Of a DNA stretch of 52,779 bases, positions 1,738 to 44,814 are shown piece by piece. The position numbers and the translations under genes were made by a program. The notes beneath the pieces are model-generated. The model saw only the letters and a program-made list of their open reading frames with translations. It was not told the origin of the DNA and did not search any database. This stretch comes from Candidatus Bathyarchaeia archaeon (GTDB taxonomy: Archaea; Thermoproteota; Bathyarchaeia; Bathyarchaeales; Bathycorpusculaceae), in NCBI GenBank assembly GCA_050015395.1, contig JBEKBM010000022.1:1-52779 (forward strand). Direction: 5' to 3'. Numbering within the stretch: the first letter of the stretch is position 1; every line of letters begins with the position of its first letter.

Positions 1738-4700
1738 ATGTCAACGGAAGAATTAATCCATAAAATAGTTGATGAAATCTCATTCGGTTTAATTTCACCC
1801 AAAGACCTCCGTAAACAATCAGTCGTTGAAATCCAAACCCCAGACACCTACGACGAAGACGGCGCACCCATCACCGCCGGCTTAATGGATGGCAGACTAG
1901 GCACACTTGAGCCAAGGCAAAGGTGCAGAACATGCGGCAACACAGCTATTCGCTGCCCGGGACACTTTGGACACATCGAACTAGCCGTACCAATCGTACA
2001 TATAGAATTCACAAAAATTATCTTCGACCTTTTGAAAGCCACCTGCCGCAGCTGCGGTCGCATACTCTTACCTGAAGGTTCCGAAGGTCCTGCAAAAGAC
2101 ACAAGCCTTGATGGAAGGATGACCGTTAAAAAGGCGCATGCCCGAATCGAACGGTACAACGAGCTCTTAGGCACAATTCCAGATGAAGTTTACAAGGAAA
2201 TAATGACTGAAATAAAAGCTAAACAATGCCCCTACTGTGCCTCCGCTCAGTACAAGATTACATTTGAAAAGCCAACAAAGTTTATTGAGCAGACTGAAGC
2301 AGGCTCCGAGCCATTGACACCCAGCATGATTCGTGAAAGGCTTGAACGCGTTTCAGACGAAGACCTTGAAATCTTGGGTTTCAACCCGAAAGTTGCACGC
2401 CCAGAATGGATGGTCCTGCAGGTTTTGCCTGTACCCCCAGTTTACGTTCGCCCATCAATCACTTTAGAATCAGGCATCCGCTCTGAAGACGATTTAACCC
2501 ATAAACTAGTGGACATCATTCGCATTAATCAGCGTCTGAAAGAGAACATGGAAGCAGGTGCACCTACGCTTATCATTCAAGACCTTTCTGAGCTTTTGCA
2601 GTACCATGTTACCACGTACTTTAACAATGAAGCCTCAGGCATTCCGCCGGCAAGGCACCGCAGTGGCAGAGCATTAAAGACTCTCTCGCAAAGGCTTAAG
2701 GGAAAGGAAGGTCGCTTTAGAAGCAACCTTTCAGGCAAACGAGTTGACTTTTCAGCCCGTACCGTTATCTCTCCTGACCCGAACCTTGACATTAACGAGG
2801 TTGGCGTACCAGTAGATGTTGCCATGCGGTTATCTATTCCAGAAAAAGTCACAGCATGGAACATTGACGAACTGAAGAAACTCGTAATTAACGGTCCAGA
2901 AAACTATCCTGGCGCATTATACATTATTAGGCCAGATGGCAAGCGCATTAGGCTAGAATTCGTTGTTGACCGAACCAAAATCTCTGAAGCTGTAGAGTTA
3001 GGATTCGTAGTTGAACGGCACCTCAAGAACGGTGACATTGCAATCTTTAATCGGCAGCCTTCACTTCACCGCATGTCAATTATGGCTCATTACGTGCGGG
3101 TTTTGCCGTACAAGACCTTCCGCCTCCACCTCTGCGTTTGCCCACCTTACAACGCTGACTTTGACGGCGACGAAATGAACCTTCATGTTCCACAAAGCGA
3201 AGAAGCACGAACCGAAGCACTTCTGCTAATGCAGGTTCAAGACCAAATCCTCTCACCTAGATTCGGCGGACCCATCATCGGTGCAATAAGGGACTTTATT
3301 ACAAGCGCTTACTACTTCACTCGAAAAGGAAACTACCTGACCAGAGGCGAAGTTAACAGGCTACTTACCACAACAGAATACGTTGGGGAACTACCAGAAC
3401 CAGAAATTAAGGAGCCGCAACCCATGTGGTCAGGCAAACAAATATTCAGCCTGTTCCTGCCAAAAACGTTGAATTACGTTCTTAAAGCTAACATTTGCCA
3501 AGGCTGTACAAAATGTGAAGAGGAAGCATGCAAGCACGACGCTTATGTAGTGGTCAGAAATGGCCAGTTAGTCTCAGGCGTTATCGACCGGCGCTCTATA
3601 GGTGCTGAGCAATCTGAAAGTCTCCTTCACAGAATAATCAAAGACTATGGCACCCAAGCAGGACGAGAATTCCTCAACAATATAACTCATCTGCTAAAAC
3701 TATACATTTCAATGCGAGGATTCAGCTACACCTACGATCAACTTGTTCTCTCGCCGAGAGCCCGCAATCGCATGGCAAAGACCATGGAACGTATCCAAAA
3801 GAAAATCGATGAACACATTGAAAACTTCCGAAACGGAACCCTCCCGCGCTTGCCAGGACAAACCTTAGAGGAATCCTTCGAAATCTACGTCATGCATGAA
3901 CTTGCCACAGCCAGAGACGAATCAGGCAAAATAGCAGACGAAGACTTCACACTAGAAAACGCGGGTATCGTCATGACCCGAACAGGCGCAAGAGGTTCAA
4001 GCTTAAACATTGGCCAAATGGCTGCTTGTGTTGGGCAACAATCAGTGCGAGGCAAACGTATCATGCGAGGCTACGCTGGACGAGCGCTGCCCCACTTTGT
4101 TGATGGCGATCCAAGTCCACGAGCAAGAGGCTTCGTTTATAACTCTTACCAGACAGGTTTGGACGCCATTGAATTCTTCTTCCATGCTATGGGTGGCAGG
4201 GAAGGTCTAGTTGACACTGCCGTTCGCACTCAACAGAGCGGTTACATGCAGCGCAGGCTAATCAATGCTCTAGAGCATATTCGTTTGGAATACGACAGCA
4301 CGGTACGTGATTCAGCCGGCGACATCATTCAGTTTAGGTATGGTGAAGACGGTGTTGACCCTGCTAAAAGTGACCATGGCAAAGCGGTAAACGTAAGCCG
4401 ACTCATTGACCAAATAAAAATCGGTGAAGAAAAAGGTGAAGCAGCATCTGCTGAGGAAATTAAGAAGCAGTTGAAACGCGTTGACGGTCAGCTTACGCCG
4501 ATTTTGATGACTCAGCTTAAACAAAACTTCGCGAAGAACAAGCTTACCAAGAAAAGTGTTGAAAAAGCCACAACCTCGACTGCTGAGCAATACAAGCGTG
4601 CTTTGATGGAGCCTGGTGAAGCAGTAGGAATTGTTGCTGCTCAATCAATAGGTGAACCGGGTACACAGATGACTCTTAGAACCTTCCACTATGCTGGTGT

Positions 4701-5613
4701 CAAAGAACAAAACGTTACCTTAGGCTTACCAAGGCTTATCGAAATCGTGGATGCACGTAGGATTCCGTCTACGCCAATCATGACCGTCTACTTAAAGGGT
4801 GAAGCTGCGAAGAGCAAAGAGGGCGCTGTTGAAGTCGCAAGGAACATAATTTACACTTCAGTTGAAAACTTGGCTTCAGCAATCTACGAAGACCCTGTGC
4901 GCGAAGAAATCGTTATTGAATTAAGCAAGTCAATGATGGATGACAGAAATATAACAATGGATGAGCTGAAAGAGCGGTTGGAATTGCAAAATGCAACAGT
5001 TACAATTACTGATTATACAGTGCAGATTAAGCCGAAAAAAGCTGAGCAACTGAAGAGGATGTTAACAAAGATTCCAGGTTTTCAAGTTAAAGGTGTACCG
5101 GACATTAAACGTGTGCTGGTTACTGAAGAAAGAGGAGAATGGGTAATACGCACTGACGGCTCAAACTTGTCTAAAGTCTTAGAAGTTCATGGTGTGGACA
5201 CTTCACGAACAAGCACCAACAACATTCACGAAATAGCTAACACTCTCGGTGTGGAAGCATCAAGAAACGCGTTAGTCAACGAGGCAAAAGGCGTCTTGGA
5301 AGACCAAGGCTTAGATGTTGATGTACGCCACGTTATGCTCGTAGCAGACATGATGACTACAACTGGCGATGTGCAGCAAATCGGCAGGCATGGCATTAGC
5401 GGCAAGAAAGCAAGTGTTTTAGCCAGAGCAGCATTCGAAATTACAGTGCCTAACATTGTTGAGGCGGCTGTGAAAGGTGAAATTGACCCGTTGGCAGGTG
5501 TAACAGAAAACGTTATAGTCGGGCAGTCGATACCAATCGGTACAGGCTTAGTTGAATTGTACATGTCAACATTTGATAAACAAGCTAAACAAGGAGGAAA
5601 AACAGAAGCATGA
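1738..5613 (+). CDS. rpoA1: DNA-directed RNA polymerase largest subunit Rpo1, A' and A'' fused in one ORF
   Basis: Catalytic NADFDGD, clamp Zn motifs, and A''-type GEPGTQMTLRTFHYAG and ARAAFE all lie in a single 1291-aa ORF. Confidence 0.98.
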   Translation: MSTEELIHKIVDEISFGLISPKDLRKQSVVEIQTPDTYDEDGAPITAGLMDGRLGTLEPRQRCRTCGNTAIRCPGHFGHIELAVPIVHIEFTKIIFDLLKATCRSCGRILLPEGSEGPAKDTSLDGRMTVKKAHARIERYNELLGTIPDEVYKEIMTEIKAKQCPYCASAQYKITFEKPTKFIEQTEAGSEPLTPSMIRERLERVSDEDLEILGFNPKVARPEWMVLQVLPVPPVYVRPSITLESGIRSEDDLTHKLVDIIRINQRLKENMEAGAPTLIIQDLSELLQYHVTTYFNNEASGIPPARHRSGRALKTLSQRLKGKEGRFRSNLSGKRVDFSARTVISPDPNLDINEVGVPVDVAMRLSIPEKVTAWNIDELKKLVINGPENYPGALYIIRPDGKRIRLEFVVDRTKISEAVELGFVVERHLKNGDIAIFNRQPSLHRMSIMAHYVRVLPYKTFRLHLCVCPPYNADFDGDEMNLHVPQSEEARTEALLLMQVQDQILSPRFGGPIIGAIRDFITSAYYFTRKGNYLTRGEVNRLLTTTEYVGELPEPEIKEPQPMWSGKQIFSLFLPKTLNYVLKANICQGCTKCEEEACKHDAYVVVRNGQLVSGVIDRRSIGAEQSESLLHRIIKDYGTQAGREFLNNITHLLKLYISMRGFSYTYDQLVLSPRARNRMAKTMERIQKKIDEHIENFRNGTLPRLPGQTLEESFEIYVMHELATARDESGKIADEDFTLENAGIVMTRTGARGSSLNIGQMAACVGQQSVRGKRIMRGYAGRALPHFVDGDPSPRARGFVYNSYQTGLDAIEFFFHAMGGREGLVDTAVRTQQSGYMQRRLINALEHIRLEYDSTVRDSAGDIIQFRYGEDGVDPAKSDHGKAVNVSRLIDQIKIGEEKGEAASAEEIKKQLKRVDGQLTPILMTQLKQNFAKNKLTKKSVEKATTSTAEQYKRALMEPGEAVGIVAAQSIGEPGTQMTLRTFHYAGVKEQNVTLGLPRLIEIVDARRIPSTPIMTVYLKGEAAKSKEGAVEVARNIIYTSVENLASAIYEDPVREEIVIELSKSMMDDRNITMDELKERLELQNATVTITDYTVQIKPKKAEQLKRMLTKIPGFQVKGVPDIKRVLVTEERGEWVIRTDGSNLSKVLEVHGVDTSRTSTNNIHEIANTLGVEASRNALVNEAKGVLEDQGLDVDVRHVMLVADMMTTTGDVQQIGRHGISGKKASVLARAAFEITVPNIVEAAVKGEIDPLAGVTENVIVGQSIPIGTGLVELYMSTFDKQAKQGGKTEA

Positions 5614-6539: not shown

Positions 6540-6763
6540 ATGGTAAGGTTGAAGTTCGTAGTTATTGTCGAAAAGGATGACGAGGCTACTATGTTGCCTC
6601 TGTTCCTGAGCTTTCTGGGTGTCACACGCAAGCAAAAACTCTTGATGAGTTAATGGTGCGAGTTAAGGAAGCTATTGAGGCGTATCTAGAAGCTGAAGGG
6701 TACGAACCAAAAGAGGGCGTTGAACTAGTTGGCCTTCAGTCCGTCGAAGTATCTGCAGAGTGA
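6540..6763 (+). pseudogene. hicB: HicB-family antitoxin, frameshifted
   Basis: Frame 1 gives MVRLKFVVIVEKDDE. A shifted frame continues GYYVASVPELSGCHTQAKTLDELMVRVKEAIEAYL...SAE*, the HicB consensus. One base is missing near 6583-6586. Confidence 0.85.
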
Positions 6764-7025: not shown

Positions 7026-7676
7026 CTACTCGTTTTCTTGTTCTTCTTCTTCCGAGGATTCTTCCTGTGGTTCAGCGGTTTCTGCTTTTTGCGCGTCACT
7101 TGAGAGTAGCATGTTGATTAGCGCTTTCTGGTCAACTTCTGCCCTTGTTCTCCAATCTAGAAACATTTGTCCATTATCATCTTGTCCTAGGTAGCCGTAG
7201 CGAATGTACCTTTCGATGTTTAAGCCAACTTTCCAGTTTGGCATTTTCTCGGCAAGGAGTTTTTCAACGTCTTTTCGTGCTGCTTGCCCTTTCTTGCTGA
7301 TTATATAAGAGATTGTTATGGCTAAGCCTGCTAAGTCGTCAATGCGCCAACCCATCAACTTATCCTTTGTAGCCAAGTCTCCTCGTAAAGTGACATAGAA
7401 TCTTGCTTTGTCAAGCTCCTCTAAGGTTGGCTTTTCTGGAGTTTTCTCCTCTTCAAAAATCGTTTTTACCTGCAGATTCAGCGGTTTTAGGTAATCGTCA
7501 AGTAAATCAAGCACTTTAGGGTAATCTGAACCTAACGCTTTACGCAGTTCCCAACCTTTAACGCCTGGTTTCTGGTGGCGCTTGTAGAAGAGCATCTGCG
7601 TTGCTTTCTTGATTTTGCTGCCGTAAACGCCTTTTCTCTTGCTCAATCCAATTCGCCTCTTTTCCATTTCTGCCAA
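7026..7676 (-). CDS. Putative kite (tandem winged-helix; ScpB/Nse1-Nse3-like) subunit
   Basis: 216 aa with two apparent wHTH segments (GWELRKALG...LNLQV; RKDVEKLL...YIRYGYL...FLDWRT) and an acidic tail. Third gene of the SMC operon. Confidence 0.6.
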   Translation of the reverse strand: MAEMEKRRIGLSKRKGVYGSKIKKATQMLFYKRHQKPGVKGWELRKALGSDYPKVLDLLDDYLKPLNLQVKTIFEEEKTPEKPTLEELDKARFYVTLRGDLATKDKLMGWRIDDLAGLAITISYIISKKGQAARKDVEKLLAEKMPNWKVGLNIERYIRYGYLGQDDNGQMFLDWRTRAEVDQKALINMLLSSDAQKAETAEPQEESSEEEEQENE

Positions 7677-8470
7677 TCTTCACATGAGACGGCGATGGCA
7701 ACCGATGTTGATTGTTGAGTTAAAATCTCCGTTTTCGGTTTGTCGAAGGGTTTTATGAAAACTAGCTCTTCTAACCTGTCAATCTCCAGCGTTGCGTAAC
7801 CGTAAGTAACAAGAAAACTCGTTAAGAAAGCTCTTTGAACTGTTTCTTCGTAAGTGTCAGCTCCAATAAAATCCCAATAATTGATTTTTCCATCCTGTCC
7901 TTTCTTAACAACGCACTCTCTGAGTTCTTGCCAGTAACAATTCAGTTCCTCAGAAAATTCCCTGTCACCTAAGACTCCCTGCTTAATCAGTTCGTCCCTG
8001 CTTGCAAAACCCATCGAAACCTCAGCGGCATCAAGGTCTTTCCATCTTTCACTAAGAGGAGCCAACGCTTCCCAATAGAGCAATCCCTGTGCTAAAGTGT
8101 TGAGGCTGATTTGTTCAAACTCGATTAGTGGATTCCAAGCTTTAAGAAAAACGTTAACCATCTCTTGCTTGCCAATTTGCAGGATTTTCTCTTCCAACAA
8201 AAACGGGTCAGTATAAAGCGAAGTTGACCGTTGCTTAACCCATTCACTCTGCAATTTAATAACCGAAGCTAAGTGGTGAAGTGTTTCAGCGTCTAGTTTT
8301 AACTCGTCAGGGTGTTCCCAATGCGGGAAATACTCTCTAACTATTTTGATTATTTCGTCAATATTTAGTGTGAAGGGGTCTGCTGTGTGGTTTTCGATGG
8401 CGATGCACATTTCAATTATGCGTTCAAGCTTTTCTTTGCCTAGCGCCTTTTGTTGTTTTATTGACTGCAT
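7643..8470 (-). CDS. Putative kleisin (ScpA/Nse4-like)
   Basis: N-terminal DPFTLNIDEII...LASVIKLQSE resembles the ScpA N-terminal helical domain. C-terminal FLTSFLVTYGYATLE resembles the kleisin wHTH. Translationally coupled to the SMC gene. Confidence 0.65.
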   Translation of the reverse strand: MQSIKQQKALGKEKLERIIEMCIAIENHTADPFTLNIDEIIKIVREYFPHWEHPDELKLDAETLHHLASVIKLQSEWVKQRSTSLYTDPFLLEEKILQIGKQEMVNVFLKAWNPLIEFEQISLNTLAQGLLYWEALAPLSERWKDLDAAEVSMGFASRDELIKQGVLGDREFSEELNCYWQELRECVVKKGQDGKINYWDFIGADTYEETVQRAFLTSFLVTYGYATLEIDRLEELVFIKPFDKPKTEILTQQSTSVAIAVSCEDWQKWKRGELD

Positions 8471-10395
8471 TAAGTGGCTACCTCGCGCACGACTGATTTT
8501 CCTTCTATATTTTGAACCGTAATCACGTTAGCGTCTTGCTGGGCAAAGGTGATTTGGCTTGGAGTGATTACCACGTATTGAGCGTTCGCGTCTTTAATAA
8601 TGGAAAGAAGGATTTTCGCTATCATCTCGCGGTTTTTAGGGTCCATGTGAATGTCATATTCGTCTACTGCTCGGAATGGTGAGCGTACATGCTGCTGCAA
8701 GGCTAAGAGAAAACTCATGGTTGCCGTGGTTCGCTCGCCGCCGCTTTGCGTGTAAGCGTCTAGCGCCACTGGTTTTCCACCTTTGAACCCAACGAGGATG
8801 TCTAACCCAGCGGTTTCAATATCCTGCGGATTCGACAGTTGCACTTCGCCTGTTGCTGAAGTTTGGCTCATGATTTTCTGGTATTCCAAGTTGACGCGGT
8901 CAAGGAGGTTCTGCATGACTGTTCGCCATGTTTGCATTCTGGTTTTGACTTCTTCAAGGGTTTTCTCGCGGTTTTCGGCTACGAGTTGCGCTTTCTCTTT
9001 CAGCTCCAAGTAAAGTTTCGAGTAGGATTCATACTGACGTTCTATGTCCTCTGACACGTCAGCGAGAGCTGCTATATGCCCTTCTGTTAAGCTGATTTCA
9101 TCTTGGATTTCAGAGGCGTTTTTTAGGACTGCTATTCGTTCACCTGACTGCTGAGCCTTAAGAATTGTTGCCTTTAGGTTTTCTTCGGCCTCCTTTAGTG
9201 ACTTTTCAATGTCTTTTAGGTTGACAATTGCGTTTGCACGCTTAAACTCAAGCAGGGCAAGGTTTACTCGTTTCTCTAACACTTCGCCTGTAACCTTGTC
9301 AGCTGACTCTTCCAGATTGAGCATTTTTGCTTGGTTTTCTTTAACTTGCTCGTTTGCCCTGATGATTTGCTGCTGTGAGTTTTTCAGCATTTCTTTGAGG
9401 TTTTCGCTTCTGAGCAGCTTAAGTTGGCTTTTGCTGTTCTGGATTGCTTGCGCCAGCGTTTGTGTTTCTTCAAGCAGTTGTGCAATTAGTGATTGTGTGG
9501 ATTGGTTTTGGGCGATTTGGTGTTCGAGGCTTAATCGTTCATCAAAAGCTGTCCTTGTTTCTTTTTTTAGCGCTTCCTGCTGGTTCTGCTGACTGTTTAG
9601 CTGGTTGGTTATTGCTTGCTTTTCCCCTTCGACTTTGCTTAGCGCGTCTTGGTTTTTGTAGAGGTTTGATTGTAAGCTTTTAACTATGCCTTCCCGTCTT
9701 TCAACTTCTGCCCAAGTTAATTCTCGATCCAAAAATCTGCGTTTAATCTGAAGTTGCTTTTTCTCTTGATATTTTTCGTATTGTTCACGCCAGTAATTGA
9801 GCGTTTGCTGGGCTGACTCTAAAAGTTTGCTTACGGATTCTTCTTGCGTGAGAATTCGCATAAGTTTTGTTTTTGCTTGCAGGACATTTTCGCGGAAAGG
9901 TTCTAAGCCGACTGCTTCTTCAACCATGCGCAGTTTTTCTGTGTTGCTCAGCACGGTGAATTGTTCAACCATGCTCTGATGCATGATGATAAGCATGTTG
10001 TCGGGGTTAACGCCGAACCTGCCGAGTAACCGTTCAACATCTTGCTTGCCGACGGCTCGGTTTTCAAGTTCAAACCCGTATTTGCCATCACGGCGCAAAA
10101 CGCGGGTTAAGAAAAGTTGGTCTTTTTGGTATTTTGGTACTGGGCGCTTGTTTCCTTGTTTGCTGTTATCTAAAATAAGCGTTACCCGCGCCTGGTCTTG
10201 TCCCCACCTGATTAAATCGCTGAGTTTTCTTGAGCGTTCAGTATATGATTGCCCCAAGCCAACAGATATTGCCAGCAGCAGAGAGGATTTTCCTGCCCCG
10301 TTGGGTCCACCAATTACGTTTACGCCTTGTTTAAACGGTACCCTAGCGTACTCGTAACTCATGAAGTTTTCAAGTATGACTTCTTGGATTAGCAT
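8470..10395 (-). CDS. Short SMC-family ATPase, SMC5/6- or coalescin(ClsN)-like
   Basis: LENFMSY, Walker [10 protein letters not shown], long coiled coil, signature QSGGER, Walker B/D-loop PFRAVDEYDIHMD, ITP motif; 641 aa. Confidence 0.88.
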   Translation of the reverse strand: MLIQEVILENFMSYEYARVPFKQGVNVIGGPNGAGKSSLLLAISVGLGQSYTERSRKLSDLIRWGQDQARVTLILDNSKQGNKRPVPKYQKDQLFLTRVLRRDGKYGFELENRAVGKQDVERLLGRFGVNPDNMLIIMHQSMVEQFTVLSNTEKLRMVEEAVGLEPFRENVLQAKTKLMRILTQEESVSKLLESAQQTLNYWREQYEKYQEKKQLQIKRRFLDRELTWAEVERREGIVKSLQSNLYKNQDALSKVEGEKQAITNQLNSQQNQQEALKKETRTAFDERLSLEHQIAQNQSTQSLIAQLLEETQTLAQAIQNSKSQLKLLRSENLKEMLKNSQQQIIRANEQVKENQAKMLNLEESADKVTGEVLEKRVNLALLEFKRANAIVNLKDIEKSLKEAEENLKATILKAQQSGERIAVLKNASEIQDEISLTEGHIAALADVSEDIERQYESYSKLYLELKEKAQLVAENREKTLEEVKTRMQTWRTVMQNLLDRVNLEYQKIMSQTSATGEVQLSNPQDIETAGLDILVGFKGGKPVALDAYTQSGGERTTATMSFLLALQQHVRSPFRAVDEYDIHMDPKNREMIAKILLSIIKDANAQYVVITPSQITFAQQDANVITVQNIEGKSVVREVAT

Positions 10396-11074: not shown

Positions 11075-11626
11075 CTAAGCGGTTAACACAGCAACATAAC
11101 ACTTCAGATCTTCATTATCAACAAAAGAAACTATCTTCAAACCAGAGCTTTCAAGAACATCCATGAATGCATTGAGCGAAAAGGCCTTTTTCAACCCAGT
11201 CACGACAACCCTGCCGCCTAGCTTGGTTACCCTTTTGAATTCGTTTAATGTTTCTGGGGGTTTTGGCATGTTTTGAAGCACCGTATACGCGAAAACAGCA
11301 TCAAAAAATGCTTCTCTAAAAGGTAAGTGGTCAGCGTCAGCCTGCAAAACCAAAACATTCTGAAAAGCATGCGCTTGTTCTTTAGCTTTAAGCAAGAGTT
11401 TGCGTGAAATGTCAACGCCCACGAGTACCTTTGCCTTTGCTGCCGCATGGCTGAAAAACAAGCCTGAGCCACATCCAACATCCAAAACAGCGCAGTCTGC
11501 TACGATAACGTTTTCCAATGCTGCCCCGTATTTTACTTCCTGTTCTTGGGCATATCGCTCTTCATACATTTCAGCCGTCAAATCATAACGTTGCATTACC
11601 TTGCGCTTGTCTTTCCAGCCTGTCAC
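11075..11626 (-). CDS. Class I SAM-dependent methyltransferase
   Basis: VLDVGCGSG, GVDIS, ADADHLPF...FDAV motifs. Confidence 0.9.
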   Translation of the reverse strand: MTGWKDKRKVMQRYDLTAEMYEERYAQEQEVKYGAALENVIVADCAVLDVGCGSGLFFSHAAAKAKVLVGVDISRKLLLKAKEQAHAFQNVLVLQADADHLPFREAFFDAVFAYTVLQNMPKPPETLNEFKRVTKLGGRVVVTGLKKAFSLNAFMDVLESSGLKIVSFVDNEDLKCYVAVLTA

Positions 11627-11692
11627 TTCTGTGTTCCTTCAAGAAATCTTATGTACCCAAGGAGTAACTAAAATACTTGGCTGAAAACAAAA

Positions 11693-12481
11693 TTGCAGGA
11701 ACCAAACAAAATCTCTGTCCTTACAGAACCAACACTTGCGGAAGCTGCCAAGCTAATCGAGAAAGCCTTCGCCCAAAGAAGAACCCTCATCATCGCAGGT
11801 ACATGCCAAGTAAACTATGCTGGCAGGGCAAGTTCAACTCTTGAACCTGGCGAACGCATCTTAATAATCAAAGCTGACGGCTCGCTTCTTGTTCACCGCC
11901 CAGTCGGCTATGAACCAGTCAACTGGCAACCTTCAGGAAGCATCTTCCACGTCAAAGCCAGCGAGACCAATCTTGAAGTTCACGCTGTGAGGCAGAAACC
12001 AAGAGAAAACGTCAAAATCACATTTAGCAACTTGCTTATGGTTTCAGCCTTAAACTTGGACGATTCGGGAGAGTTTCTGCTTTACGCAAGCGAAAAAGAC
12101 ATGCACCAGGCGATTCTGCTCAAGCCGTCGCTTTTAGAGGAAGGTTTCAAACCAATCAGTTACGAGAAAAAAGTGGAGCCGGGTTTTGTGGACGTTTACG
12201 GAGTGGATAAGGATGGGAAACTGGTTGTTGTTGAGGTTAAGCGGAAAACGGCTGGAAAAGAAGCTGTGTTGCAGCTTGCACGGTACATGGATGCGATTAA
12301 GGAGAAAGCGAACCGTGAACTCCGCGGAGTGCTCGTAGCGCCCAGCTTGGGCAAGGATGTGCAAAGGTTGCTGGTGACCATGGGCTTGGAGTTTAAGGCG
12401 TTAGACCCTAAAGAATGTGCAGAAGTGCTAAAGAGAGCGGAGAATGCAAAGTTAGAATCCTTCTTTAAAGAAAAAACCTAG
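11693..12481 (+). CDS. nucS: Endonuclease NucS/EndoMS
   Basis: YAGRASSTL, KADGSLLVH, PVNWQ, VDVYG..VVVEVKR, QLARY motifs. Confidence 0.95.
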   Translation: MQEPNKISVLTEPTLAEAAKLIEKAFAQRRTLIIAGTCQVNYAGRASSTLEPGERILIIKADGSLLVHRPVGYEPVNWQPSGSIFHVKASETNLEVHAVRQKPRENVKITFSNLLMVSALNLDDSGEFLLYASEKDMHQAILLKPSLLEEGFKPISYEKKVEPGFVDVYGVDKDGKLVVVEVKRKTAGKEAVLQLARYMDAIKEKANRELRGVLVAPSLGKDVQRLLVTMGLEFKALDPKECAEVLKRAENAKLESFFKEKT

Positions 12482-12651: not shown

Positions 12652-13197
12652 CTATGCGGTTAAAGCTTCAAGTATTTCAAGTGTTTTATCTTTTTGCGCC
12701 TGTTTTCTGACAGCGATAATATTCAATTTGGTGAAGGCTAAAATTGCCTTAATATCTTCTTTATCTTTACTTGCGCGTTCAGGCGGTAGGGTTGCCTTAA
12801 TCATTCTGAGTTTTGCCGCAATCAAGCCTTCAGGCGACTGGAAAAAAGTTTGTAGGTTACCTATCTTTCCTGATTTTTTGTCTAGTTCGGCTTCCGAGAG
12901 TATAATGTCAACGGTGTACGGTGTTATTTTGTCTTTGAATGTCACTATTTTGTAACCTGAGGTTAATGCCGTCTCGATTTTTCTTTCATTTGCTTCTAAA
13001 TTTGCCTGTTTTAATGCAGCGGTAATCTTTTTTTTCAAGTCTGTTTCGCCAGCAACTGCTATTATTACATCTACGTCAATAGTGGTTCGGGGAACGCCGT
13101 AAAAACTCGCTGCCAACGCACCAGTGAATGCATAATCTAACTTTGCACTTTCAAAAGCATTAACAAGTTTCTTCACAAAACCGTAGTATGCTTCCAA
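12652..13197 (-). CDS. Nucleotidyltransferase (DUF6036/AbiEii-like) putative toxin
   Basis: TGALAASFYGVPRTTIDVD (GA.A...YG.PR.T.D.D) and C-terminal K...KD..D motifs. Confidence 0.75.
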   Translation of the reverse strand: MEAYYGFVKKLVNAFESAKLDYAFTGALAASFYGVPRTTIDVDVIIAVAGETDLKKKITAALKQANLEANERKIETALTSGYKIVTFKDKITPYTVDIILSEAELDKKSGKIGNLQTFFQSPEGLIAAKLRMIKATLPPERASKDKEDIKAILAFTKLNIIAVRKQAQKDKTLEILEALTA

Positions 13198-13209
13198 TCT
13201 AACTTCACC

Positions 13210-13419
13210 TCAACGGTTGTGCTTGGACCATTCGAACCGCTCACGCAATTTCACAATCAACTCTTCCTCGGTAATGCTTGGAAACTGGTTCCTGATACCG
13301 TCAGCACATATTTGGGCGCATCCGTCAGTCATGTCGATGCATAACAGCACTTTTTCTTCAGGTTTGAGGCGCCCTAAACGTTCCCAGTCCTTATCCATAA
13401 ACGATACACACGCATGCAA
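13210..13419 (-). CDS. Small helical protein, putative partner/antitoxin of the nucleotidyltransferase
   Basis: LKPEEKV...GIRNQFPSITEEELIVKL pattern; directly upstream of and co-oriented with the NTase. True start may be the internal Met (MDKDW). Confidence 0.6.
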   Translation of the reverse strand: MHACVSFMDKDWERLGRLKPEEKVLLCIDMTDGCAQICADGIRNQFPSITEEELIVKLRERFEWSKHNR

Positions 13420-13503
13420 GAATTATTGCAGTAGTGCCTAAAATAACCTTACATCACAAGGACGCCCAGCATCAAACGAACCCATCATGTAAAAATGATT
13501 GGA

Positions 13504-14160
13504 TTAAGGCGCTATGTTTTTTGCCCCGTTCCTGTGAGACTTATGAACTAGCCAGCATTTCTGGCAGTACACGGGACGGTCTGCATGGGGTTGAAATGGT
13601 ACTTTGCATTCGCAGCCGCAGTCGCTACAAACTGCGGTGTAAACTGGTTCTTGGTGAAATTGGCTAAACAAATGGTAGTTCTTGAGGCGTGGCCAACCTG
13701 TCTTGGCGTAACGTAGCATTTCAGGTTTGTCTTTTAGCCAGCGCATCATGTGGAAGAAGCTTTTGCCTCTTTTTTCTTCACGTTCAGCTAATGGTTCGTA
13801 GCCTAAGTTGCGGATTTCGTCTAGGTAAGCGATTTCTGTTAACCTCTGCGCTTCGCCGACGACTCTGACGCGTTTAACGCGGTCTTCGCCGTAAACTTTA
13901 CGGAGCTCCTCAGCGGCTACGTCAAAGATGCAGCCTTGGCAAATGTGAATTGCCTCGTCTGGTTTAAGGTTAAACCATGCGACAAGTTTGGAGACGATGC
14001 GTGAGGATTCTTGCAGGTACTCTTTTTCGCGGAAGATTTCTTGGTAGAACCTTACGTCGATCATGTCGTATTTGAATTCGCCTGTTTCTTCTCGGTAAGC
14101 GCCGACTACTACGCCGAAAAGTAAGTCGCCGCTGCCTGCATCGTCAACAATAAGTGTCAA
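13504..14160 (-). CDS. RNase HII-like fold protein fused to a CxxC-x17-CxxC zinc ribbon
   Basis: N-terminal IVDDAGSGDLLFGVVVG resembles RNase HII GxDEAGRG. C-terminal CSDCGCECKVPFQPHADRPVYCQKC. Confidence 0.6.
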   Translation of the reverse strand: MTLIVDDAGSGDLLFGVVVGAYREETGEFKYDMIDVRFYQEIFREKEYLQESSRIVSKLVAWFNLKPDEAIHICQGCIFDVAAEELRKVYGEDRVKRVRVVGEAQRLTEIAYLDEIRNLGYEPLAEREEKRGKSFFHMMRWLKDKPEMLRYAKTGWPRLKNYHLFSQFHQEPVYTAVCSDCGCECKVPFQPHADRPVYCQKCWLVHKSHRNGAKNIAP

Positions 14161-41524: not shown

Positions 41525-43612
41525 TTACTGTTCAATTGAGATTTTGCTAACTCCAGCCTCTTTTTCAAGAATTACCACATGGTCAGCTTTTGATGCGAAT
41601 GCTTCGCTGTGCGTAACAGCAATGATTTGTTCAATTGCTTTGAATCGGCTTATAGCTTCTGCCAAGCGCTCTATGCTGCCATCTTCGCTTCCCAAGTTCT
41701 CGGTGGGTTCATCAAGCACAAGTATGCTTAAGCCGTGACCAGTGCGTGATTGCATAATCAGCTGTCCTAAACCTAAACGGTAAGCAAACGCCAAAAGCGT
41801 ACGTTCTCCCCCCGAAAGGTTAGAGACTTCACGGTCAACGCCTGTTTCGCTTTTCACGTAAGGCGTGTAAGTTTCATCAATAACAACGTTTAGCATTGGT
41901 GCTTCCTCGCCGACTAAGCCATCAAGCACCTGCTGAACAAAATTACGCAAAACCTTCACAAACTCACTTCGCAGTTTAGGCTGAATACCACGGTAAGCGT
42001 CACGAATGGCACCTAAAACTTCTACGGTTTTACGGATTTTCTCCATGCGTTCAAGCTTTTCCTGAGCAAAATTAATCCGCTCTTTAGTTTCGTCTAAGCG
42101 TTTGAAAAGGTCTTTTTTGCCGTTTTCTTTAGTGCACAAATCGGAGTTTAACATGTAATATTGTCGAAAAGCCTGTTCACGCTGCGCTCGGGCAGCATCG
42201 AGTTCTGATAAATCAAATCTGCTGATTTCAAACTGAACCTGCTCCAGCTGCAAACGCAAATCAGTTTCAAGCTTCTGCTTCTCCTCAAATTCGGTTGATA
42301 GGTTATTTAGGTTGTTTTCTTCTTCACTTAAGCGGTTTTTTAACTCTTCAACTCTTGTCAAACAAGTTTGCAGGTTCGAGTACGCTTCAGCGGCTACAGT
42401 TCTTGTTTTCTGCAGGTTATCAATTTCAATTTTTAATTGATTAATGTTTTTTTCCCGCTCAAAATTTTCTTGCTGGATCCTTGAAAGCAGATTGCTTTTG
42501 TATTCGCCCTCTAATGGTTGCACACAAAGCGGGCACTTACTTTCTTGTGCTAAAGACACAACTCTCTTCTTGTCTGTTTGCAGGTTTCTTGATGTCGCTT
42601 CTTGATCAGCCCTTAAACTGCTGATTTTATCATCAAACGCTGCCAAAGAAGAATGCAGTGTTTCAACAGGCTGATTAATCGGCAAACCTGCTTGCTCAAG
42701 TTTATCTAAGCACACTTTAGCTTGGGCATCAATTGAGTTTTGGCGCTGATGCAAATTATTCAAGATTGTTTTTTTGCCTTCGATTCGTTGAGTTAGGTTA
42801 GCCAAAGTGTTAGCCATGTTAACATTATCAGCATGGAGTCTTGCTTCTTTTCGCTTAAGGTCTTCAATAGCTTGCTTTTTCTCTTCTAGCTTTTTCAGTT
42901 TGGAATCTGCTTCATTCAATGCTTTCTTGGCAACCGTTAACTTTTGCGTTGAGTTCTCAAGATCCATTTCTAAAAGTGCGTATTCTTCACTTGCCCTATT
43001 GTATTCGTTGCTTAGCTTTTCAAGCCCAGTAACGTCTGGGTCTTTCTCGTAAACCCGCTTTTCAGTTTCATAGTCCCGCTGATACTGAGCAATATTGCTC
43101 CACGCGACCTCATAGTCGGACAAACCGAATAGTTCATCCAAACGCCTTTGCCTGTCACGCGGCGCAGCATCCAGTAGCTCTTTGAGGTGTTCTTGCCTAA
43201 ACCATACTATTTCTCGGTAAAGGTCCTTGTCTAAACCTGTGATAGCTTTAAACTGTTCAGTGATGGCGTCTGTTTTCATGCTGGCAACAAGCTTCTCATC
43301 CTCATAGAGTTTGAGTTCTTCAAAATTTTGGGTAATGCTTTTCCCCTTTCTTTTTAATCCGCGTATAAGCTTGTAGGTGCTTCCGTTTTGTGTAAACTGT
43401 ACAGTGACCTTGCCTGAATCCGCGCCTTCACGCAGCAGATATTCAAAACTTCTGCCTATTGAGTCACCGAACAAGGCGAAGTCAACCGCGTATAAAACGC
43501 TGGATTTTCCGCAGCCTAAACCACCAACAAGACAGTTAAAGCCCCGTGTAAATGGCACGGTGGATTTAATGTGGCTGCGAATGTTTTCCAGCTGAACTAT
43601 TTCAATTTTCAT
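41525..43612 (-). CDS. rad50: Rad50-like SMC ATPase
   Basis: Walker A GGLGCGKSS, central CPLC Zn hook, LSGGE, LDEPT; coupled to mre11. Confidence 0.9.
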   Translation of the reverse strand: MKIEIVQLENIRSHIKSTVPFTRGFNCLVGGLGCGKSSVLYAVDFALFGDSIGRSFEYLLREGADSGKVTVQFTQNGSTYKLIRGLKRKGKSITQNFEELKLYEDEKLVASMKTDAITEQFKAITGLDKDLYREIVWFRQEHLKELLDAAPRDRQRRLDELFGLSDYEVAWSNIAQYQRDYETEKRVYEKDPDVTGLEKLSNEYNRASEEYALLEMDLENSTQKLTVAKKALNEADSKLKKLEEKKQAIEDLKRKEARLHADNVNMANTLANLTQRIEGKKTILNNLHQRQNSIDAQAKVCLDKLEQAGLPINQPVETLHSSLAAFDDKISSLRADQEATSRNLQTDKKRVVSLAQESKCPLCVQPLEGEYKSNLLSRIQQENFEREKNINQLKIEIDNLQKTRTVAAEAYSNLQTCLTRVEELKNRLSEEENNLNNLSTEFEEKQKLETDLRLQLEQVQFEISRFDLSELDAARAQREQAFRQYYMLNSDLCTKENGKKDLFKRLDETKERINFAQEKLERMEKIRKTVEVLGAIRDAYRGIQPKLRSEFVKVLRNFVQQVLDGLVGEEAPMLNVVIDETYTPYVKSETGVDREVSNLSGGERTLLAFAYRLGLGQLIMQSRTGHGLSILVLDEPTENLGSEDGSIERLAEAISRFKAIEQIIAVTHSEAFASKADHVVILEKEAGVSKISIEQ

Positions 43613-44814
43613 TTTGTCAGCTCCTCAATGGTTTGCTTGACTTTCTCGTCTTGTTTTCTTGTTAAGGGCTCTATGAGGCGAAGTGCTGAACGTGCGATTT
43701 TGTCAGCTTCTTCGTGGCTATAACGTTCGGAGAAAATCTGCAGAAAATACTCGAAAGCTTTGGTCTTCAAATCTTTAAATTCGCTCTCAAAAATGGACCG
43801 TGCGATTTCGTCTGAAACAGCGGTTTCTTTTAGCAGTACGATTGGGTGAACAAGCAATGCTTTCTCGCCAGCGCTTCGGATTTTACCTATGTCGATTTCT
43901 GCTCGGCTTGCTTCAGCCGGTAAGGTGCCCTTCAAAACAGGAATTATTACTGCTCCTTCAAAGTCAGCGCCTTTTACAAGTTGAGTGGCTAACTCCGTGA
44001 TCTTCCCTGACGCCATACCCGTGAAATCTTGCTCAAAAATAACGAATTTACGAGTGGAAGCTAATTCTATAGATTCTGGATTTACTTCTCCTTTCTCGTT
44101 TACATTGATGTGGAAGAAGCCTTTTTGATACTTGGCTTCTCTGTAATCTGCTGTTTCAGTGCAGCCGCTATACACTAGGGTGCCTGTTTTGAACTTGCCT
44201 AAGTATCGTTCATGCACGTGACCAGCAGCATAGTAGTCGAAGCCGCCTGGCAGTTGTTCGGGTGAAATTTCTGCTTCAATGTATGGTGGCTTAACGCTTG
44301 GCAAATCCACTGCTCCGTGAAAAACAAAAATGTTGCAAACCTTGCCATCGGGCGTTGGAGGGTTTTCCTCCATGAACTTTGGTAGTGCCTCTTCAGTTTT
44401 ATGCTTATTGTGAAAGTTTGGTATGCCATAGACGTAGCAGCAGTCTGGTTTGCGCCAGCATGCGCCGCTGTGTCTTGGCAAATGGTGGATTAATCCTGCG
44501 CTGTCCAATGGGTAGAGGATTGTACCCGTTACTATGTTTGGCGCGGAATCGTGTGAGCCGTCAACCGTTAAAACTGGGATGTCGGCGTCTTTGAGCCGCT
44601 TAAAACTTCGAATAGTGTTTTCCAGAGTAACGTTTGATGGTCTCGCTTGATGGAACAAGTCGCCCGCGATTATCATAAAGTCAGGTTTTAACTCTATTGT
44701 TTTATCCACTACTTCTTTGAATGCGTTGTCGAAGTCTTGCCTTCTAGCTTCGAGTCCATACTGTGCATAGCCTAAATGCAAGTCTGAAGCGTGAACAAAG
44801 CTAAACGGCTTCAA
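43609..44814 (-). CDS. mre11: Mre11 nuclease
   Basis: SDLHLG, AGDLFH, GSHD, AGHVH metallophosphoesterase motifs. Confidence 0.93.
   Translation of the reverse strand: MKPFSFVHASDLHLGYAQYGLEARRQDFDNAFKEVVDKTIELKPDFMIIAGDLFHQARPSNVTLENTIRSFKRLKDADIPVLTVDGSHDSAPNIVTGTILYPLDSAGLIHHLPRHSGACWRKPDCCYVYGIPNFHNKHKTEEALPKFMEENPPTPDGKVCNIFVFHGAVDLPSVKPPYIEAEISPEQLPGGFDYYAAGHVHERYLGKFKTGTLVYSGCTETADYREAKYQKGFFHINVNEKGEVNPESIELASTRKFVIFEQDFTGMASGKITELATQLVKGADFEGAVIIPVLKGTLPAEASRAEIDIGKIRSAGEKALLVHPIVLLKETAVSDEIARSIFESEFKDLKTKAFEYFLQIFSERYSHEEADKIARSALRLIEPLTRKQDEKVKQTIEELTK

Follow-up and report, generated by a model that had tools for sequence, protein, structure and literature searches.

A three-gene operon of Candidatus Bathyarchaeia archaeon (assembly GCA_050015395.1) probably encodes an archaeal SMC5/6-related complex built from a hinge-less SMC ATPase whose arm is of half length, together with an Nse4-type kleisin and an Nse1/Nse3-type kite; we put the probability of this reading at about 0.8. 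The operon lies in the window, the stretch of 52,779 nucleotides analysed here (contig JBEKBM010000022.1). A first-pass annotation had proposed a minimal archaeal SMC5/6-type complex at this site, and the identity of its parts is borne out by a phylogenetic tree of SMC head domains, by a Pfam Nse4_C match in the kleisin and by the predicted fold of the kite. Judged from sequence comparisons, the trio appears to be the second SMC system of an organism that also carries a canonical Smc-ScpA-ScpB.

Operon organization

The three overlapping genes first noted at 7026..10395 are all returned by the list of open reading frames, on the minus strand and at exactly these coordinates:

8470..10395, minus strand: predicted SMC5/6-type SMC ATPase gene, 641 aa, ATG start, stop at 8470-8472, no cysteine
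7643..8470, minus strand: predicted Nse4-type kleisin gene, 275 aa, ATG start
7026..7676, minus strand: predicted Nse1/Nse3-type kite gene, 216 aa, TTG start, tandem winged helix, acidic tail, no cysteine

The kleisin gene and the ATPase stop have 1 nt in common, the kite and kleisin genes overlap by 34 nt, and an ATG three codons inside the TTG offers an alternative start for the kite gene. Homologues of the trio number in the thousands, and the SMC-kleisin-kite order is conserved in 29 of 30 close loci (the remaining locus ends at a contig edge) and in 14 of 18 more distant ones, where the four exceptions comprise two cuts at contig ends, one displaced kleisin and one SMC gene standing alone in the fetched stretch. 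The number of homologues together with the conserved gene order establishes that these are genuine genes and not chance ORFs. They form one conserved operon, separate from the canonical operon that the same genome (98.9% complete) carries on contig 9 in the same gene order, with a Smc of 1183 aa (hinge match at 3.4e-21), ScpA (27.9 bits) and ScpB (124.6 bits).

Two other ORFs recur at related loci: a DEAD_assoc (Lhr-type) ORF adjoins 8 of 48, and a 231-aa ORF without a Pfam match adjoins 13 of 48. The former is found on contig 6 of this genome, away from the trio, and the family of the latter gave no match in the genome with the query used. A conserved fourth operon gene was rejected because neither ORF adjoins the trio in the window.

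An SMC ATPase with a bare-hairpin arm

The ATPase divides into the following features, assigned from the AlphaFold2 model and from residues invariant in the family:

9901..10395, minus strand: N-terminal half of the ABC head, residues 1-165 (AlphaFold2 fold and invariant residues)
10285-10308, minus strand: Walker A, with invariant G30, P31, N32, G33, G35 and K36
8863..9903, minus strand: predicted antiparallel coiled-coil arm, residues 165-511 (AlphaFold2, pLDDT mostly 85-95)
9421..9444, minus strand: predicted arm tip loop, residues 318-325, at the position that a hinge or zinc hook would take (AlphaFold2)
8473..8862, minus strand: C-terminal half of the ATPase head, residues 512-641 (invariant residues)
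8734-8748, minus strand: ATPase signature motif, with invariant S551-E554
8641-8676, minus strand: Walker B/D-loop block, with invariant E579, H583 and D585
8560-8568, minus strand: 'ITP' at the H-loop position, with invariant P612

The SMC head motifs quoted in the first-pass annotation are present, and they are conserved in an alignment of 36 sequences whose invariant residues include G30-K36, the Q-loop glutamine Q140, S551-E554, E579, H583, D585 and P612. Pfam SMC_N matches residues 3-627 at 3.9e-30. The AlphaFold2 model (mean pLDDT 88) is a single helical hairpin in which one helix runs outward (165-317), the loop follows (318-325) and three helices return (326-417, 427-443 and 451-511); by arithmetic from the 153-residue outward helix, the arm is about 23 nm long. 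The earlier description of a 641-aa protein without hinge or CxxC hook holds in each respect. The ATPase has no cysteine, and a CxxC hook is therefore impossible; it has no Pfam match to SMC_hinge, and a six-frame search of the whole genome for the hinge returned a sole match, the canonical Smc on another contig; and a globular hinge could not be accommodated in the helix-loop-helix fold of the modelled arm. The protein thus combines intact ATPase motifs with a bare-hairpin arm devoid of a hinge.

The 8-residue tip loop is the only part of the model with pLDDT below 50. Both the tip loop and the outer arm are of low conservation in the family alignment, and thus give no indication of a defined distal dimer contact. 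A two-copy complex prediction of the arm tip (residues 240-400, family alignment) gave a median score of 0.31, where the mark was 0.42 and the controls scored 0.00, and speaks neither for nor against self-association.

These features bear on one alternative, namely that the ATPase is an SMC-related protein of the Rad50 or coalescin/ASRP kind, with a zinc hook as its means of dimerisation. Its short arm is indeed akin in overall size to those of Rad50 and the ASRPs, and a mid-protein CxxC is present in three longer Bathyarchaeota relatives. However, zinc-hook dimerisation of this ATPase is refuted by its lack of cysteine, its scores against the NCBIfam ASRP model (71 bits, cut-off 300) and the best Rad50 model (75.7 bits, cut-off 700) are far below threshold, Rad50 forms the outgroup of the head tree described below, and the window carries a separate Rad50-Mre11 pair of its own at 41525-44814, so that this alternative is scarcely credible. 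The parallel drawn earlier with coalescin (ClsN), which portions of a published account assign to the zinc-hook ASRP family (PMC9389158), fails on the same score of 71 against 300 bits and the same absence of cysteine.

The ATPase groups with eukaryotic SMC5/6

The first-pass annotation had described the head as resembling SMC5/SMC6 rather than canonical Smc or Rad50, and three kinds of comparison sustain this view. In a sequence search of the PDB, yeast Smc5 (4.8e-32) and human SMC6 (5.6e-29) rank first. Among 1.84 billion representatives searched, the matches of full length that lie outside the ATPase's own family include, in the set checked, SMC6 orthologues; 19 long representatives were scanned, and all fall short of the canonical-Smc cut-offs. 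Finally, a head-domain tree (65 rows, 362 columns, Rad50 root; sampled outside eukaryotic SMC1-4, bacterial Smc, MukB/JetC and RecN) unites the short family, the long Bathyarchaeota forms and the eukaryotic SMC5/6-type sequences with support of 100/97, and joins this SMC5/6 clade to an Asgard hinge-bearing form with 95/90. Of the 14 rows grouped there as eukaryotic SMC5/6, two were compared with solved structures. Canonical Smc is separate (97/99), Rad50 is the outgroup (100/100), and the short family falls outside the split of the two eukaryotic subclades. An all-archaeal clade was rejected by the AU test (p = 0.0048); the group tested was named after the tree had been seen, yet it matches what the first-pass annotation had set down beforehand as refuting its claim, a grouping of the ATPase with canonical Smc or Rad50/SbcC. 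The 'TP' block at the H-loop is likewise common to the SMC5/6-type rows, with a different block in canonical Smc and Rad50; the Walker B/D-loop block is also common to the SMC5/6-type rows. On this sequence evidence, the placement of the ATPase with eukaryotic SMC5/6 and apart from canonical Smc is supported.

A second alternative regards the trio as a paralogue of canonical archaeal Smc-ScpAB that has diverged and been truncated, without any particular link to SMC5/6. The best NCBIfam model for the ATPase is in fact SMC_prok_A (177.7 bits), and Foldseek ranks a Pyrococcus Smc head first (7e-24). Yet the SMC_prok_A score compares with a cut-off of 729.4 bits and that of SMC_prok_B (135.2 bits) with one of 567.35 bits, and that Foldseek search, made with the whole ATPase model, matches the heads of Smc, Smc5/6, cohesin, condensin and Rad50 alike, providing no discrimination. 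The tree and AU test, moreover, set the ATPase apart from canonical Smc; its head is 24-26% identical to that of the organism's own canonical Smc. The partner proteins, considered next, also argue against this alternative, the kleisin by matching Nse4_C and not ScpA and the kite by matching Nse1/Nse3 before ScpB, and neither shows significant similarity to the ScpA and ScpB of its own genome. A paralogue of this kind is thus highly improbable.

Kleisin and kite partners

The second gene was earlier taken to encode a kleisin, which can now be specified as Nse4-type. It scores 27.4 bits with Pfam Nse4_C, above the cut-off of 26, and has the following domain:

7661-7885, minus strand: predicted kleisin C-terminal winged-helix domain, residues 196-270

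Among 30 members of the kleisin family, 21 match Nse4_C and none matches ScpA (SMC_ScpA). A profile of the family finds EID3/NSE4B at 1.4e-5 and yeast Nse4 at 3.4e-5, and ScpA at E 0.8-1.1. These profile matches support the assignment of the 275-aa protein as an Nse4-type kleisin.

As for the third gene, its identification as a tandem-wHTH kite is supported by structure prediction. The AlphaFold2 model (pLDDT 82.9) comprises two helix-helix-helix-hairpin units, and its top Foldseek matches are Nse1 and Nse3 of 7dg2 (1.4e-5 and 6.9e-5, TM ~0.5), followed by MAGE-G1/NSE1, JetB, MukE and ScpB, the last at 7e-3. Pfam matches across 30 family members are weak (SMC_Nse1 in 4, MAGE in 3), with SMC_ScpB in none. 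The identity of the kite rests on its fold, because single-sequence scans of Pfam, NCBIfam and PADLOC gave no match and the kite alignment profile found nothing significant in the PDB. The modelled fold supports the 216-aa protein as an Nse1/Nse3-type kite.

Distribution and proposed role

Of the 301 genomes sampled across the phylum, 154 contain a match to the short family (E <= 1e-20), representing 65 of 122 genera, and the best 80 loci listed with the kite alignment as query are nearly all labelled Bathyarchaeia or Bathyarchaeota. No mid-protein CxxC was found in 57 representatives of 540-700 aa or in 48 locus ORFs. Three longer Bathyarchaeota relatives that do carry a mid-protein CxxC are nested within the short family. 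By these sequence matches, the short hinge-less build is the norm for the SMC5/6-related family in the phylum. A tally of 61 genomes (G000-G060) gave both the short and canonical systems in 25, the short system only in 12, the canonical only in 9 and neither in 15; in five short-only genomes (92-97% complete), no SMC hinge match was found. The trio's own neighbours encode RNA polymerase A, L30e, NusA, a methyltransferase and NucS; among 61 loci of close relatives with complete flanks, only 20-28 (~40%) retain such housekeeping genes.

Two modes of action might be envisioned for such a complex. One is defence, in which an SMC-based system would restrict plasmids or viruses in the manner of Wadjet or Lamassu rather than maintain the chromosome. 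The kite model also matches Wadjet JetB (2.9e-4 to 8.3e-4), the ATPase matches PADLOC mad3 (1e-22) and LmuB (9.7e-20), although these are generic defence-ATPase matches confined to the head, and eukaryotic Smc5/6 is described in the abstract of PMC9458440 as a viral restriction factor. Against defence, neither kleisin nor kite has a PADLOC match, the operon carries no nuclease effector of Wadjet/Lamassu type (JetD, LmuA), and no JetD-like or other nuclease recurs beside the trio in the 48 loci. The spread of the short system over the sampled genomes and genera is also far more even than is usual for defence islands, the system is the sole SMC-kleisin system found in 12 of the 61 tallied genomes, and the trio's adjoining genes are housekeeping. 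A Wadjet- or Lamassu-like system is therefore unlikely. The other mode, constitutive chromosome maintenance by way of DNA repair, handling of DNA junctions or folding, is the most likely role of the SMC5/6-related complex, and a defence role the less likely one; a housekeeping role is favoured because of the distribution across the phylum.

By analogy with solved Smc5/6-Nse1/3/4 and Smc-ScpAB structures, the heads of two ATPase copies would come together around two ATP. A single kleisin may then bridge the ATPases, its N-terminal helices bound to the neck of one and its C-terminal winged helix to the other's cap, with a kite dimer seated on the kleisin middle and DNA clamped atop the engaged heads within the head-kleisin-kite compartment. 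Because there is neither hinge nor hook, nothing would join the arms except the engaged heads, the bridging kleisin and perhaps packing of one arm against the other. It is this analogy that suggests both the SMC-kleisin-kite assembly and its mode of dimerisation.

Implications of a hinge-less architecture

It is tempting to speculate, though at less than even odds, that the nearest prokaryotic relatives of eukaryotic SMC5/6 are hinge- and hook-free 'mini' SMC complexes present in most of the phylum and serving as the sole SMC-kleisin system in some lineages. Should such complexes retain the ability to entrap DNA or translocate along it, SMC function would not require a distal dimerisation domain. 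The head-kleisin-kite clamp would then represent the ancestral working core, and the apex would be evolutionarily plastic, bearing a hinge in the Asgard and eukaryotic forms, a CxxC in the three long Bathyarchaeota forms and a bare loop here. With some genomes in which no hinge-bearing SMC was found, the family offers nature's own test of whether an SMC motor can do without a hinge. A small, three-subunit system with a cysteine-free ATPase is also appealing for biochemistry and cryo-EM, and suits engineered cross-linking.

Comparison with known systems

The canonical Smc-ScpA-ScpB of the same genome shares with the trio a three-part logic and the SMC-kleisin-kite order, but its Smc has 1183 aa and a hinge, whereas the ATPase has 641 aa and none. 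'Hinge-less' SMC homologues labelled as actinobacterial have been described from ocean metagenomes (PMC12153180); like the ATPase they combine an SMC head with a coiled coil lacking a hinge and were judged distinct from Rad50/SbcC. The comparison is one of descriptions, and the portions of that report considered here draw no link to SMC5/6, a kleisin or a kite.

With the eukaryotic Smc5/6-Nse1-Nse3-Nse4 core (7dg2, 7tve, 7qcd, 8i4x), the trio has in common the head signatures, the Nse4-type winged helix and the kite fold, and probably also the way in which heads, kleisin and kites clamp DNA. It differs in having one SMC gene, which therefore predicts a homodimer and not Smc5 plus Smc6; in having one kite gene, without a RING (no cysteine); in an ATPase without a hinge and with an arm about half as long; and, at the level of the operon, in the absence of Nse2, Nse5 and Nse6.

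The closest counterpart is already in print, and the complex is not a new kind. SMC5/6-related archaeal SMC proteins (aSMC) were published with Bathyarchaeota named among their carriers (Yoshinaga & Inagaki 2021, PMC8665677), and operons with an Nse4-related kleisin and an Nse1/3-like kite were reported from TACK and Asgard archaea (van Hooff, Raas, Tromer & Eme, bioRxiv 10.1101/2024.01.07.573240), both according to portions of these texts. The main-text portions of the two reports, supplements aside, make no mention of the half-length hinge-less build. The trio resembles the published complex in its SMC5/6-grouping SMC (one gene of this type in the genome), Nse4-related kleisin and Nse1/3-like kite in one operon, in the separate canonical operon of the organism and in its TACK affiliation, and nothing in it excludes membership. 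The locus thus provides a further, well-supported case of the archaeal complex that is regarded as the ancestor of eukaryotic SMC5/6. The point for specialists is its architecture, an arm of ~23 nm ending in an 8-residue loop, which is typical of the family across the phylum.

Organization and genomic neighborhood of the SMC–kleisin–kite genes

The first-pass annotation claimed three overlapping genes, and this observation is confirmed: the ORFs are present on the minus strand exactly as follows.

8470-10395 (-): SMC ATPase, 641 aa, ORF
7643-8470 (-): kleisin, 275 aa; ATG start, which has one base in common with the upstream stop
7026-7676 (-): kite, 216 aa; TTG start with a 34-nt overlap, alternative ATG 3 codons inward

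The SMC–kleisin–kite order recurs in 29 of 30 loci, the remaining one ending at a contig edge; among more distant loci it holds in 14 of 18. The trio lies among archaeal housekeeping genes, namely those for RNA polymerase subunit A, L30e, a NusA-like KH protein, a SAM methyltransferase and NucS, and such neighbors are retained at 20-28 of the 61 close loci with full flanks. The methyltransferase (11075-11626, minus strand) and NucS (11693-12481, plus strand), a mismatch/flap endonuclease, form a divergent pair upstream of the operon (11075-12481), and each also neighbors the trio at 25-28 of the 61 fully flanked close Bathyarchaeia loci. Across the 48 loci checked, neither a nuclease nor any other effector gene was found to accompany the trio.

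Several other features of these neighborhoods deserve mention. Many archaea have separate A' and A'' genes for RNA polymerase subunit A, which here is a single unbroken 1291-aa ORF (1738-5613, plus strand). Between the NusA and kite genes lies a HicB-like antitoxin remnant (6540-6763, plus strand). Its last 59 residues (6584-6760) score 29.9 bits against HicB_lk_antitox, and the likely N-terminus, from 6540, is in a different frame; the cause is either a frameshift in a pseudogene or a fault in the assembly. At 12652-14160 (minus strand), a weak AbiEii-like nucleotidyltransferase ORF (181 aa) and a 218-aa ORF that combines a treble-clef zinc finger with a weak C-terminal Cas12f/TnpB-type match may be mobile-element remnants. 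In 8 of 48 loci, all of them distant (e.g. L041:10-1164), a DEAD_assoc (Lhr-type helicase-associated) ORF adjoins the kite gene; the sole DEAD_assoc gene of the window's genome is on contig 6, apart from the trio. Upstream of the SMC gene in 13 of 48 loci is a 231-aa ORF without a Pfam match, whose family was not found in the window's genome in a search with one query.

A short SMC ATPase without hinge or hook

The 641-aa ATPase matches Pfam SMC_N over residues 3-627 (3.9e-30), and its ATPase motifs are intact and invariant across the family (36-sequence alignment). Its scores against the NCBIfam canonical SMC models fall far short of the cut-offs (177.7 bits, cut-off 729.4). Identity as ASRP was rejected (71 bits, NCBIfam cut-off 300), as was identity as Rad50, every NCBIfam Rad50 model being far below cut-off. 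Yeast Smc5 (4.8e-32) and human SMC6 (5.6e-29) are its nearest sequence matches with a solved structure; a construct of Pyrococcus Smc (1.4e-26) and Rad50 (~1e-8) rank lower.

The protein was initially described as lacking a CxxC hook and any evident hinge, and this description holds: it contains 0 cysteines, and the Pfam scan gave no hinge match. In the AlphaFold2 model, built on the 36-sequence alignment (mean pLDDT 88), a single antiparallel helical hairpin links the two head halves, with one helix running outward (165-317), three returning (326-417, 427-443 and 451-511), and an 8-residue low-confidence loop (318-325) at the tip. The 153-residue outward helix predicts an arm of roughly 23 nm.

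Nse4-like kleisin and Nse1/Nse3-like kite

The identification of the second and third genes as a kleisin and a tandem-wHTH kite was likewise borne out. The 275-aa kleisin matches Pfam Nse4_C at 27.4 bits (cut-off 26); among diverse family members, Nse4_C was detected in 21 of 30 and SMC_ScpA in 0 of 30, and precomputed Nse4_C annotations appear on 40 of the best 120 homologues listed. The family profile retrieves EID3/NSE4B (1.4e-5) and yeast Nse4 (3.4e-5 to 9.5e-5), and ScpA at E 0.8-1.1 only. The domain identified is the C-terminal winged helix only; we infer the N-terminal neck-binding domain.

For the 216-aa kite, sequence methods (Pfam, NCBIfam, PADLOC, and the family profile against PDB) gave no match, and the sole recurring weak Pfam matches among 30 family members are SMC_Nse1 (4) and MAGE (3). 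The AlphaFold2 model (pLDDT 82.9) contains two helix-helix-helix-hairpin units, for which the top Foldseek matches are Nse1 (1.4e-5) and Nse3 (6.9e-5) of the Nse1–Nse3–Nse4 complex, with TM about 0.5, then MAGE-G1/NSE1, followed by JetB, MAGE-A4, MukE and ScpB.

Phylogeny of the ATPase head

Head halves of 65 proteins (362 columns) were analyzed in IQ-TREE under LG+C20+F+G4 with a Rad50 root. The set comprised 24 of 48 short-form ORFs, 5 long relatives, the Asgard form, one unplaced protein, 14 long distant representatives, 14 canonical Smc from the phylum and 6 Rad50, and was drawn up without SMC1-4, bacterial Smc, MukB/JetC or RecN. Of the 14 distant, eukaryote-type representatives, the 2 that were checked are SMC6 orthologues (full-length scores of 316 and 355 bits against human SMC6) and the remaining 12 are unlabelled; canonical-Smc cut-offs were passed by 0 of 19 long proteins scanned.

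The head had been called SMC5/6-like, with grouping with canonical Smc or Rad50 named as the contrary outcome. In the tree, canonical Smc forms one clade (97/99), the eukaryote-type rows form another (99/94) with two subclades, and the short family and long Bathyarchaeota forms join the latter at 100/97, or at 95/90 with the Asgard form included. The alternative of an all-archaeal SMC clade apart from the eukaryote-type rows was rejected (delta lnL 23.3, AU p = 0.0048) in a test whose group was chosen after the tree was inspected. The same division is seen in sequence blocks: (I/V/L)TP occupies the H-loop position of the short family, long forms, Asgard form and eukaryote-type rows, canonical Smc and Rad50 have other residues there, and the Walker B/D-loop block splits the same way.

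Distribution and possible function

The closest homologues listed (best 120, 81-95% identity) are all 629-675 aa, and the source names of close homologues assign the organism to Candidatus Bathyarchaeia. Among 1.84 billion cluster representatives, 139 proteins match at E <= 1e-30, including full-length family members of about 550-690 aa (36-47% identity) and five longer relatives of 928-1047 aa (29-37% identity). In the phylum sample, matches at E <= 1e-20 occur in 154 of 301 genomes (124 of 263 high-quality genomes; 65 of 122 genera), and nearly all listed open frames are about 580-700 aa. Pfam scans of 8 short and 5 long relatives found no hinge; hinges are present in an 835-aa Asgard relative (Candidatus Freyarchaeum) and in one 1125-aa protein. 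A half-length arm without a hinge is the rule for the SMC5/6-related family in this phylum.

A mid-protein CxxC is absent from all 57 representatives of 540-700 aa and all 48 SMC ORFs from the loci. Three long Bathyarchaeota forms of 1016-1047 aa (P0256, P0258, P0269) have a near-midpoint CxxC and, with weak inner support, fall inside the short family in the head tree, which hints that an SMC5/6-type protein secondarily acquired a hook-like apex.

Distribution of the short form and canonical Smc over sampled genomes G000-G060
Both systems: 25 genomes
Short form only: 12 genomes
Canonical only: 9 genomes
Neither system: 15 genomes

In five short-only genomes (G008, G016, G040, G057 and G009, of families f18 and f19; 92-97% complete), the trio is present, canonical Smc gives no match at 1e-60 and the search for an SMC hinge found none, so that these genomes seem to have the hinge-less complex as their sole SMC–kleisin system. 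Genome distribution and the housekeeping neighborhood favor a putative role in constitutive chromosome maintenance over one in defense. By analogy with solved homologues, the heads would engage, driven by ATP, the kleisin would form a bridge, the kite would dimerize, and DNA would be clamped.

Comparison with known systems

The window's genome (98.9% complete) also carries Smc (1183 aa, hinge 3.4e-21), ScpA (27.9 bits) and ScpB (124.6 bits) on contig 9; this canonical system has the same gene order as the trio. The two systems are far apart in sequence. A separate Rad50–Mre11 pair is located in the window (41525-44814, minus strand). Its short Rad50 (695 aa) matches SMC_N and the SbcC Walker B, reaches 19.9 bits for the zinc hook, below the cut-off of 24.3, and is encoded directly downstream of the Mre11-type phosphoesterase (401 aa) with a 4-nt overlap.

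Yoshinaga & Inagaki 2021 define 80 'SMC5/6-related aSMC' homologues, 66 from TACK archaea, and name Bathyarchaeota and Thaumarchaeota (PMC8665677); with a length window of 500-1500 aa, their set could include short forms. van Hooff et al. (bioRxiv 10.1101/2024.01.07.573240) described kleisins related to Nse4, kites resembling Nse1/3, and a distinct operon for each of the two complexes. The main texts of both papers make no mention of short or hinge-less forms, a point on which the supplements may bear. A literature search for 'hinge-less' SMCs returned one paper only, on ocean sequences labelled actinobacterial (PMC12153180). The interpretation as an SMC5/6-type complex is supported, and the locus adds another member to the published archaeal SMC5/6-related family. 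Its under-reported feature is the half-length, hinge-less arm: the length quoted for SMC arms is roughly 50 nm (PMC7055376), and the arm predicted for this ATPase is about half as long.
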